A stretch of 64,000 nt of DNA from Somniosus microcephalus (Eukaryota). A program made the position numbers and the translations under genes. Where the stretch lies: positions 43,958,001-44,022,000 of the forward strand of contig CM126204.1 in assembly GCA_052327205.1 (NCBI GenBank). Direction: 5' to 3'. Under the pieces are notes generated by a model that worked only from the letters and a program-made list of their open reading frames with translations, was not told where the DNA came from and searched no databases. Of the stretch, positions 930 to 3,793 are shown in pieces (positions within the stretch are counted from its first letter, which is position 1; every line of letters begins with the position of its first letter).

Positions 930-2065
930 TTATTGTCTTCTGCCTCTTCTTTTTCTTTTCTGCCTTTTTGAGACTCTCGGGGCTCCTTTCTCGGCTGCCA
1001 GCTGTAGCGCCACCAACTCTCTATGTTCCTTAGACCTTAAGTGTTTCATCCTGATTTCAGCACTTTGGGAGTTTTCCTCACAAACTGGGCAGACCAGATC
1101 CTCGTAATATTCAGTGTCACTCAACAGGTCATGGTAATATTCGGGGTCGTCCTGAGTTAGGCCAGCGAGAGGGCCTTCTACTTCCTCCTTACCCATCTGG
1201 ACGTTAGCCGACTGTGGTTCCTTCCCTAGACATCTTTCTTGAAAAGACTTCCTCATACATTCATATTCATCACGCTCTTCCTAGGTTGTCTGCCATTCCT
1301 TCGCTACTGTCCTCATTTGTGAGTTCAATACCTTCCCTTCCATCGGGGATTGCGTTATCCGGCTATTTACTCCTACTGGAGTAGCTGTTTCCCCATCCTT
1401 CTGTTCAATTTGACGTAATTCAGCGTCCTTTTGGCATCCTTGTAAAAGCTGTGTTGCCACCTCAGCTATCTCCATCCCTTTTGGAAGCTCCGAATTCCTT
1501 CCCTTTGAAGCCTGAAGCTCGTGTTTCCCTTGTGGAGTCTTGTCACTCTTCCTGTGAAGGAGTTGGCTGGTCGTTAACTCTTCCCCGGGGACACTGTGGA
1601 TCAGCTTCTTCTCTATTTCATCCACCTTTCCCTCTGGTACTTGGGTTTTAAGCGCTCGAAGAAGTTGCGCCTTGATGCTCTCTAGCTCCAGTTCAGGGGC
1701 CATTCTTCCAGTCTCTGTTTCTCTTCCAGTTGCCTTTCCTTCCACTGCCCGGATTCCCAGTTGACTGTTCTTCAAGTTGTTGAACCCTGGTCATTTCCGC
1801 CTCATATTTGTCTTGGGTTTCCTTCAGTACTTTTGAGTTCTTGAACCTCTTGGATTCCATGTTCTGCCATGTCTTCCACCTCCAATTTTTCATCGATGGA
1901 TGGAATCTCTACCGATGAGTCTGTCTTGGCCTGGAGCTCCTCAAACATTTCCTGCATCCTTTGGACTTCTTGCTCATGTTCAACCTTTAGTTGCTCATAT
2001 GCTTTCACTAAAACTAGCTTTTCGGAGGTTGCCGAGTTAACCCCCTCCAGAATTGTAGCCTGGGC
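930..2065 (-). pseudogene. Disrupted C-terminal continuation of the element polyprotein (coiled-coil, C2H2 finger, basic tail)
   Basis: The frame stays open after TAG 2066-2068 (AQATILEG...KAYEQLKVEHEQ). Apparent 1-nt shifts near 1832 and 1765 join it to ORFs 1693-1893 and 1281-1775. TAG 1281-1283 is in frame with ORF 930-1256 (CPVC-x12-H-x5-H, KRQKRKRRGRRQ). Confidence 0.7.
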
Positions 2066-3793
2066 CTATTCATACTGTTCTTTCAACTTCTTACACTCTG
2101 CTTGTAAGGAGTCGTAGAGAGGAACTGGGATAAAATCCTGGCTGCCTGAAGATTCCTCTTCATTTGTTTCGTTCTGCAAATATTCTAACTCTTGAACAGC
2201 ATCAGGGAGATGTGATCGATACTTAGCCATGATGGCCCTATGGTCGCTCTCAGCTTGAGCTAGCTGCCTCTGTTGTCTTTCCAGGTTCTCCCATTCGGTG
2301 TCCCAGAATTGTTCCATTGTTTTCATCTCTTGTACGAGACGGTAACTCAACTGTTCTAATTGTTGTTGTATTTTGCGATACGTTTGAGTCCGGGCTCTCT
2401 CTTCTTCCGTCGTGGATAAGTCCTTAACTTGGACAGGCTCAGAATTCTCTGTCAACCTGGAGTTCTGCTCTGAAGCTTTATCCTTCTCGGTAGCATAAGC
2501 CTTTATGCCTGTCTTCGTTTTCTCCACCATAGTCGGCAAGTCCATTTCAGCCTTGTCTTCCATATTTGAGTTAGTCTTATCGTCATCCGTTCCAGAATCT
2601 GAGCTGATTGCTCGTACCGAGTCCTCACTCGTGATGGCTTTTAGATAGTGCCATTCCATGTCTATTTTCTTAATCCACTCCCGTCCTAGAAGTGGTGGTC
2701 CTCCCTCAGGTAATACGTACAAGTTCATTCTTGGGTGTTCTTTACCCCTCTCTCTCACCTTGACTCTTATCTTCCCCATGGGGTATACTTTATGCCCCGT
2801 GTATGTCTGTAATACGAACTTGGTATTCCTTAAGGGTATGTGAGAGAATAGCCGGTGGTAGTCCCTTCGATTGATGACTGATAGAGCTGATCCAGTGTCC
2901 AACTCCATTCTTACTTGGACTCCAGCTATTCTTCGCATGACCCAGATAGTTTGTAGATCAGCTTCCCTCCCCACATTGTGAATTCTCAGACTACCCAGCT
3001 CCTGGTTGTTTGGGTCTGAGTCTGAATTCTGTTCGTCTGAACTCTTCTCGGCCACCTTGTGTACCTTGCTGTACTTTTCTTGTGGTGGCTTCCTTTGGTT
3101 GTTGGTCTTCTTCCCTGACCGGCATACCTTTGCGATGTGACCCAGTTTGCCACATTTCCTACATTCTTGGTTCTTAAACCAGCATTGATTCTGGTCGTGC
3201 GTTGTCTTCCCACAACGATAGCATTTTGTTGTATTCGAGGTAATTTGGTCCACCCCGAGTGCCGCCGCCTTCAGCTGCATTTCTGCCGTTCCTTTCGCTG
3301 CGGCTTCGTGCGATGCAGCTATAAGAACAGCCCTGTCTAGTGTGAGGTCATTCTCTTCCAGTAGTCGCTTTTGCGTCCCTTCTTTGGACAATCCACATAC
3401 GAACTTGTCTCGCAGTGCCTCTGTCAGATTCCCTCCGAACTGGCAGTATTTCGCCAGCCTACGCAGTTCGACCAAGTATTCCACGTTACTTTCGTCTTTC
3501 CTCTGCGTTCTTGCATAGAATTTGAAACGTTCAGCCAGCATCAACGGTGTGGGGTTCAAGTGGTCCTTCAGCACAGCCACAATCTCTTCAAAAGTCTGAT
3601 CCGTCGGTTTATCTGGTGCTATTAGATGCTTCAAGAGCCCGTATGTTTTTGCCCCCATCGAGTTTAGCAATGTTATCGCCTTGTCGTCTTCCTCTATTTT
3701 GTTGGCTTCACAATAAATCTCTATGCGTTCCACGTACGTGGCCCAGTCTTCTATCTCAGAATTAAAATCATTAATATTCCCTCGCTTAGGCAT
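2066..3793 (-). CDS. Gag (two CCHC knuckles) - aspartic protease - coiled-coil fusion, 575 aa to the first stop
   Basis: Mag-type Gag N-terminus (GNINDFNSEIEDWATYVERIEIY, ERFKF, LRDKFVCGL); knuckles CYRCGKTTHDQNQC and CRKCGKLGHIAKVC; protease LDTGS...LLGREW; then an E/Q/K-rich helical region where RT would normally start. Confidence 0.9.
   Translation of the reverse strand: MPKRGNINDFNSEIEDWATYVERIEIYCEANKIEEDDKAITLLNSMGAKTYGLLKHLIAPDKPTDQTFEEIVAVLKDHLNPTPLMLAERFKFYARTQRKDESNVEYLVELRRLAKYCQFGGNLTEALRDKFVCGLSKEGTQKRLLEENDLTLDRAVLIAASHEAAAKGTAEMQLKAAALGVDQITSNTTKCYRCGKTTHDQNQCWFKNQECRKCGKLGHIAKVCRSGKKTNNQRKPPQEKYSKVHKVAEKSSDEQNSDSDPNNQELGSLRIHNVGREADLQTIWVMRRIAGVQVRMELDTGSALSVINRRDYHRLFSHIPLRNTKFVLQTYTGHKVYPMGKIRVKVRERGKEHPRMNLYVLPEGGPPLLGREWIKKIDMEWHYLKAITSEDSVRAISSDSGTDDDKTNSNMEDKAEMDLPTMVEKTKTGIKAYATEKDKASEQNSRLTENSEPVQVKDLSTTEEERARTQTYRKIQQQLEQLSYRLVQEMKTMEQFWDTEWENLERQQRQLAQAESDHRAIMAKYRSHLPDAVQELEYLQNETNEEESSGSQDFIPVPLYDSLQAECKKLKEQYE

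Follow-up and report, generated by a model that had tools for sequence, protein, structure and literature searches.

Host exons in reverse order inside an LTR element

How did part of a host gene come to lie inside a retroelement with its end placed ahead of its middle? The question is raised by the window analysed here, a 64,000-nt stretch of Somniosus microcephalus DNA (assembly GCA_052327205.1, contig CM126204.1, positions 43,958,001 to 44,022,000 of the forward strand). On the minus strand, window 300–5205 is a non-autonomous Ty3/Gypsy long terminal repeat (LTR) element that encodes gag-protease without pol and, behind the protease, a cargo resembling the host gene ANKRD24. Judging from the sequences, we assign a probability of about 0.85 to the reading that the cargo derives from template jumps of reverse transcriptase (RT) onto host circular RNAs (circRNAs). 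The same lineage likely captured three such circles separately, from an ANKRD24-like gene, STK10 and EVI5.

The cargo peptide was found in the minus-strand frame where a preliminary description of this DNA had quoted it, within 1760..2285, and the resemblance to the ANKRD24/RAI14/UACA family claimed there was borne out by protein comparison. With the stop read as X, the peptide matched ANKRD24-like/ankycorbin proteins of cartilaginous fishes with as much as 70% identity (E 8e-42). Of 878 candidates, 16 scored, and 14 of the 16 came from sharks or rays; a PDB search gave no useful match. Window ~2275–2192 aligned with the C-terminal motif ending YAVQ (residue 1155 of P0001) and window 2191 onward with host residues ~576–760, which lie ~580 residues upstream of that motif in the host, so that the order is indeed reversed, as described. 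The donor gene in this genome is an ANKRD24-like paralogue at G000:C13:62.72–62.88 Mb, two other family members reaching just 37–38% with the same probe. In one subfamily of the element the cargo DNA is ~96% identical to the host gene, and a generic coiled-coil match was rejected on the strength of this match at the DNA level.

The last exons of the donor gene, A–E, have canonical boundaries in phase 0, all four of them. Exon D (62873348–413) is followed by a GT donor, and an AG acceptor precedes the start of exon B at 62861849. In the element, the D donor is joined, base-exact, to the acceptor of B, two exons upstream, at window 2192|2191. The junction had been predicted at ~2192, and both of its breakpoints proved to be exon boundaries, the outcome on which a back-splice origin had been made to depend. 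Exons C and D are joined without their intron, and the source was therefore spliced RNA, in agreement with the proposed transduction of host RNA. The cargo comprises the last ~16 nt of exon C (2258..2273, overlapping the left microhomology AGCAGCT), the entire 66 nt of exon D (2192..2257) and exon B from its first base to ~nt 643 (1577..2191). It thus runs from 2273 to ~1577, containing the quoted peptide and continuing beyond the limit of 1760 first given. In all, 725 nt were captured out of a 1,743-nt ANKRD24-like circle. Host exons A and E had no match in the cargo, no poly(A) tail was present at the cargo, and both cargo ends run into element coding sequence. No longer ANKRD24 capture was found; the remainder of exon B matched a single place.

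The D|B junction was present in all 42 loci examined, these being top-identity matches, and an exact 29-nt pattern across it had 1,397 matches in the genome (reversed-pattern control, 0). RNA reads also cross the D|B junction of the element and, together with the pattern counts, dispose of an assembly chimera. In RNA run X14, the source of which may be a close relative of this species, sense reads covered the cargo and its flanks, which were co-transcribed with the element, and 130 reads represented the cargo-free form.

Captures of STK10 and EVI5

The ANKRD24 cargo is flanked by pieces of STK10 and optineurin. In four of four loci examined with a whole STK10 piece, the donor of exon s11 was joined exactly to the acceptor of exon s7, with 2 nt of microhomology, and the junction pattern had 882 genome matches. 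The piece in locus L127 is a full permuted lap: its 1,259 nt consist of one turn of a five-exon, 1,245-nt circle that was opened within an exon, together with a 14-nt repeat, and it was 98.8% identical to the permuted host exons without a gap. A pol-bearing copy matched its flanks at 99.2% and 97.8% identity, and ~2.66 kb of that copy is missing where the lap sits; the word TGGATGAG is common to both at the exit. The STK10 and ANKRD24-like circles are both multiples of three with no in-frame stop, and the STK10 exon chain in the element is free of introns. Host exon s9 (G000:C8:167193683) apparently has a GC donor (GC-AG intron), a splice that the element lap follows.

A third subfamily (1,502 pattern matches in the genome) was reached through loose ends in the RNA of the cargo. 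Here an EVI5 piece lies 17 nt past the D|B junction, and the v16 donor is joined exactly to the v12 acceptor, each in six of six loci examined. The piece begins with the last 16 nt of v16, passes to the first base of v12, continues through v13–v16 and ends at its starting base, again a full permuted lap, from a circle of 678 nt of phase-0 exons. The lap is internally deleted, it entered without loss of target sequence, and introns are absent from its exon chain; its junction pattern had 1,777 genome matches. In spliced mRNA only ~1 nt is shared at the v16|v12 junction, too little for microhomology to account for it. The EVI5-bearing copies L074–L078 vary in their internal deletions, and the 3' half of L075 is 91% like the cargo-free relative described below, which suggests recombination between subfamilies.

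Entry of the cargo and proposed route

A cargo-free relative at C13:62.889–62.893 Mb has the same flanks as the cargo-bearing element and no ANKRD24 cargo. Its comparison with the cargo-bearing form gave the microhomologies AGCAGCT at host exon C and GA(A/G)GAGT at exon B, and a swap that replaced a ~50-nt stretch and preserved the reading frame. Template switching, as far as these alignments indicate, does explain both outer ends of the cargo. A double template switch is the route described for LTR-mediated retroposition (PMC5131818).

We propose that a host circular RNA would be packaged together with the element RNA, and that RT would jump onto the circle, copy over the back-splice junction and return at short common words. 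On a circle, RT should come back to template already consumed, and a full lap would be expected. Packaging of host circRNAs by retroviral Gag has been reported (10.64898/2026.01.21.700838).

The nesting of the pieces suggests an order of events. A pol-bearing element would first have swapped ~2.66 kb of pol for one lap of the STK10 circle, and optineurin exons and a zinc-finger piece would then have been added. Part of the ANKRD24-like circle would have taken its place in the third step, and one lap of the EVI5 circle would have entered later, behind the D|B junction. The derivatives presumably move in trans with enzymes supplied by relatives that bear pol, and a capture would have spread only if it left the gag-protease frame open.

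Points against circle capture and alternative explanations

Several observations weigh against capture from circles. No host circle was seen in RNA, either in four runs over exons B–C or in four over the cargo; X14 and X15 gave reads on the captured part of exon B only, the host gene looking silent, and contigs of X1 and X3 contained only the linear joins A-B and D-E. The absence of host circles in these RNA runs is no evidence against circles. The D|B junction has 4 nt of microhomology (CAG|G), and the ANKRD24 piece is a partial lap, which contains the back-splice junction and does not by itself demonstrate circularity. The optineurin piece had no back-splice junction (two of three loci mapped). 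A 453-nt inverted match (80%) between the introns flanking B–D may lend weak support to circle formation; the inverted repeats may be younger than the capture, and intron A-B has matches to intron B-C in either orientation.

A 956-nt contig of run X1 (L037, joint 6664 to 3022) has a 35-letter backward joint with unknown sequence between; the same contig goes from D to E, and it was not counted.

The alternative that fares best, although improbable, is that linear RNAs with repeated exons, produced by trans-splicing or transcribed from a lost tandem duplication, were captured by template switching. Such RNAs would give an identical DNA junction, one common word used twice on a tandem repeat could also yield a lap, and the failure to see a circle in RNA speaks in their favour. 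Duplicated exons were absent from the three host regions scanned in this assembly (250, 400 and 90 kb for the ANKRD24-like gene, EVI5 and STK10), each of which held one ordered set of the captured exons. The linear route also calls for a rare event in each of three genes, two of these events ending at, or within 14 nt of, the starting base. Back-splicing is the usual source of donor-to-upstream-acceptor junctions.

Still less probable is a route in which circles were copied to circular DNA and entered the element by a single crossover at a short common word, with no RT jump in the particle. Single-crossover integration predicts a complete lap bounded by a short terminal repeat, and the EVI5 lap caused no target loss. 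The STK10 lap, however, replaced ~2.66 kb, and the ANKRD24 piece replaced ~50 nt with two different words; neither replacement fits one crossover, and circRNA would in any case still be the source.

Chance template switches in linear mRNA at CAG|G-type words coinciding with splice sites, corresponding to the switch at 'VQ' that the preliminary description had put forward as its other route, are very unlikely and already largely refuted: despite the 4 nt common at D|B and a switch point reported close to an exon-exon junction in Drosophila (Tan 2016, PMC5131818), of the 10,735 backward junctions in exons A–E that have 4 nt or more of microhomology only 1 reads donor to upstream acceptor, the EVI5 and STK10 junctions share only 1–2 nt, and all three backward junctions found are exact at splice sites. 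For capture from circles, the part of that suggestion which survives is switching at the outer ends of the cargo.

The optineurin exons (1183..1583, minus strand, in host order) are colinear, beginning 8 nt past an acceptor and stopping at a donor in the two of three loci mapped. Possibly this piece comes from a fourth circle that was opened at the junction. It consists of six exons (L123:753-1631; host G000:C17:85879057-85890333), the end phases differ, and crossing such a junction would shift the frame.

A cargo-bearing copy lies antisense in intron C-D of its own donor gene (L049:1070-5961, G000:C13:62867070-62871961), flanked by a 5-nt duplication. The chance expectation, given ~3,200 cargo copies, is ~0.07 for the whole gene and 0.003 for the B-D span, a rough and post hoc estimate. 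In the host pre-mRNA, ~640 nt of exon B would base-pair with this copy. Gene conversion of this copy inside the host gene was rejected in view of its own 5-nt duplication and of at least 40 copies 99% alike elsewhere.

Retention of the reading frame

One frame of 967–978 codons, from Gag through all cargo, was open in 15 of 30 and 8 of 12 top-identity sister copies, shares that are biased to young copies, the copies having been picked by similarity. The window copy has a premature stop at 2068–2066 and frame breaks near 1834 and 1766; these are lesions of this copy, many sister copies being open. Between one open copy each of two subfamilies, all four gaps were multiples of three, and no stop occurred behind the protease, against 7–12 expected if neutral. 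This comparison takes open copies by choice; yet in each subfamily roughly half of the near-identical copies, or more, are open, and the open state is therefore the state that spread.

The ratio of nonsynonymous to synonymous change (omega) was 0.10–0.14 for gag-protease. For the ANKRD24 piece it was 0.52 by the Nei-Gojobori method (p 0.011) and 0.65–0.90 on single-change codons (p 0.09–0.41), values that point to weak amino-acid constraint. The frame thus appears to be needed, and the captured residues may matter little. The four named captured pieces are, we assume, coiled-coil regions. Such a bias may reflect selection, or purine-rich, stop-free exons that share words and switch in frame easily.

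More tentatively, circles could be the preferred host template of this lineage, a Gag-protease element building a growing chimeric protein from stop-free, in-frame circles (STK10, ANKRD24-like, EVI5, perhaps optineurin). The cargo would then be translated and might help to outcompete the pol-bearing parent or dampen host trafficking/autophagy partners; we regard this extension as doubtful.

Relation to known systems

Pseudogenes derived from circRNAs are known, with LTRs enriched in their flanks by a mechanism called mysterious by Dong et al. 2016 (PMC4897178); mouse circRFWD2 has at least 33 pseudogene copies there. The captures described here resemble them in the non-colinear exon junction, the missing poly(A) and the LTR context. 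They also show the sequence features by which high-confidence circRNA-derived retrocopies are recognised, namely a non-colinear junction, absence of introns, exons of the circle only and no tandem duplication in the assembly. Unlike the pseudogenes of PMC4897178, however, these captures can be traced to their parent element, to both switch points and through full laps, and a single lineage took three genes, with 882–1,777 matches per junction, in frame with gag-protease.

Likeness to LTR-mediated retroposition, as described in PMC5131818, extends to internal host exons, short common words at both ends, multi-gene chimeras, onward non-autonomous movement, sense transcription and a frame that is often kept. 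The defining features of LTR-mediated retrocopies were likewise found: host exons between discontinuous element parts, microsimilarity at both fusion points and co-transcription. In contrast, Tan et al. 2016 (PMC5131818) regard their cases as captures of mRNA, and the main text contains 'circ' 0 times. Maize Bs1, as cited in the same paper, has one to five copies, compared with 882–1,777 matches per junction here. Retrozymes (PMC4918200) are similarly non-autonomous LTR elements tied to circular RNA; judging by the title, the RNA circle there is the element's own and bears a ribozyme, whereas host back-spliced exons are the cargo here.

A report of this family, or of serial, in-frame, full-lap circRNA capture by one LTR lineage, was not found in the literature searched (most subscription papers and the repeat databases lay outside the search). 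CircRNA-derived pseudogenes and LTR template-switch capture are already known singly; what was not found there and appears new is that one lineage made such captures serially, in frame and over full laps, with its parent element still visible.

The route by which circRNAs return to genomes was left open in PMC4897178, and this family displays a parent element, two jump points and laps that end at their start. Such a route can act on a large scale (exact junction matches exceed 4,000), repeatedly and with the frame preserved, and circRNAs may therefore make a real contribution to exon shuffling in vertebrates whose LTR elements are active. The family would also record three germline circRNAs of a fish lineage, which are named targets for direct test. 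In circRNA surveys of such genomes, element copies will mimic back-splice reads.

Other features of the element and the window

The minus-strand element has a 5' LTR (TG...CA) at 4951..5205, a direct repeat of the 3' LTR at 300..554 (LTR length 255 nt; 2 differences in 254 nt compared). A 5-nt target-site duplication, CTTCT, flanks both LTRs at 295–299 and 5206–5210. A TGG motif like a primer-binding site, the candidate site, lies just inside the 5' LTR at 4940..4949, and a polypurine tract adjoins the 3' LTR at 555..568. Gag with CCHC knuckles and an aspartic protease occupies 2641..3793 (Pfam zf-CCHC E 0.0013, Asp_protease_2 E 4.6e-5). Its LTRs, target-site duplication, primer-binding site, polypurine tract and gag-protease are as in Ty3/Gypsy elements; unlike the single gag-pol frame of those elements, host exons take the place of pol without a change of frame. 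The gag-protease of the window element is followed by no RT, RNase H or integrase, whereas family relatives elsewhere in the genome bear pol in the order PR-RT-RH-IN, as in Ty3/Gypsy, which makes the window element a non-autonomous derivative. We take the family to belong to the Mag-like clade.

Remnants of the older STK10 capture lie on both sides of the later cargo on the same strand, as three exon pieces at 2262..2630 (71–79% to host) and as the 3' remnant of the lap at 758..829 (76% to host STK10), now behind a stop. The zinc-finger piece, an acidic stretch with a C2H2-like finger and a basic tail (930..1182, minus strand; L075:2175-2462), sits between the optineurin and STK10 remnants and ends the long frame of the family. 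Its Pfam zf-C2H2_2 match (E 9e-4) is below the cut-off, and no homologue was found for the tail (0 of 195 candidates scored); the tail may resemble DNAJC21.

The 5' leader of the element contains tandem repeats of 54 nt and ~110 nt at window 3878–4463. Outside the element, a partly masked region at window 9502–11234 has long open frames on both strands and is probably a tandem repeat.
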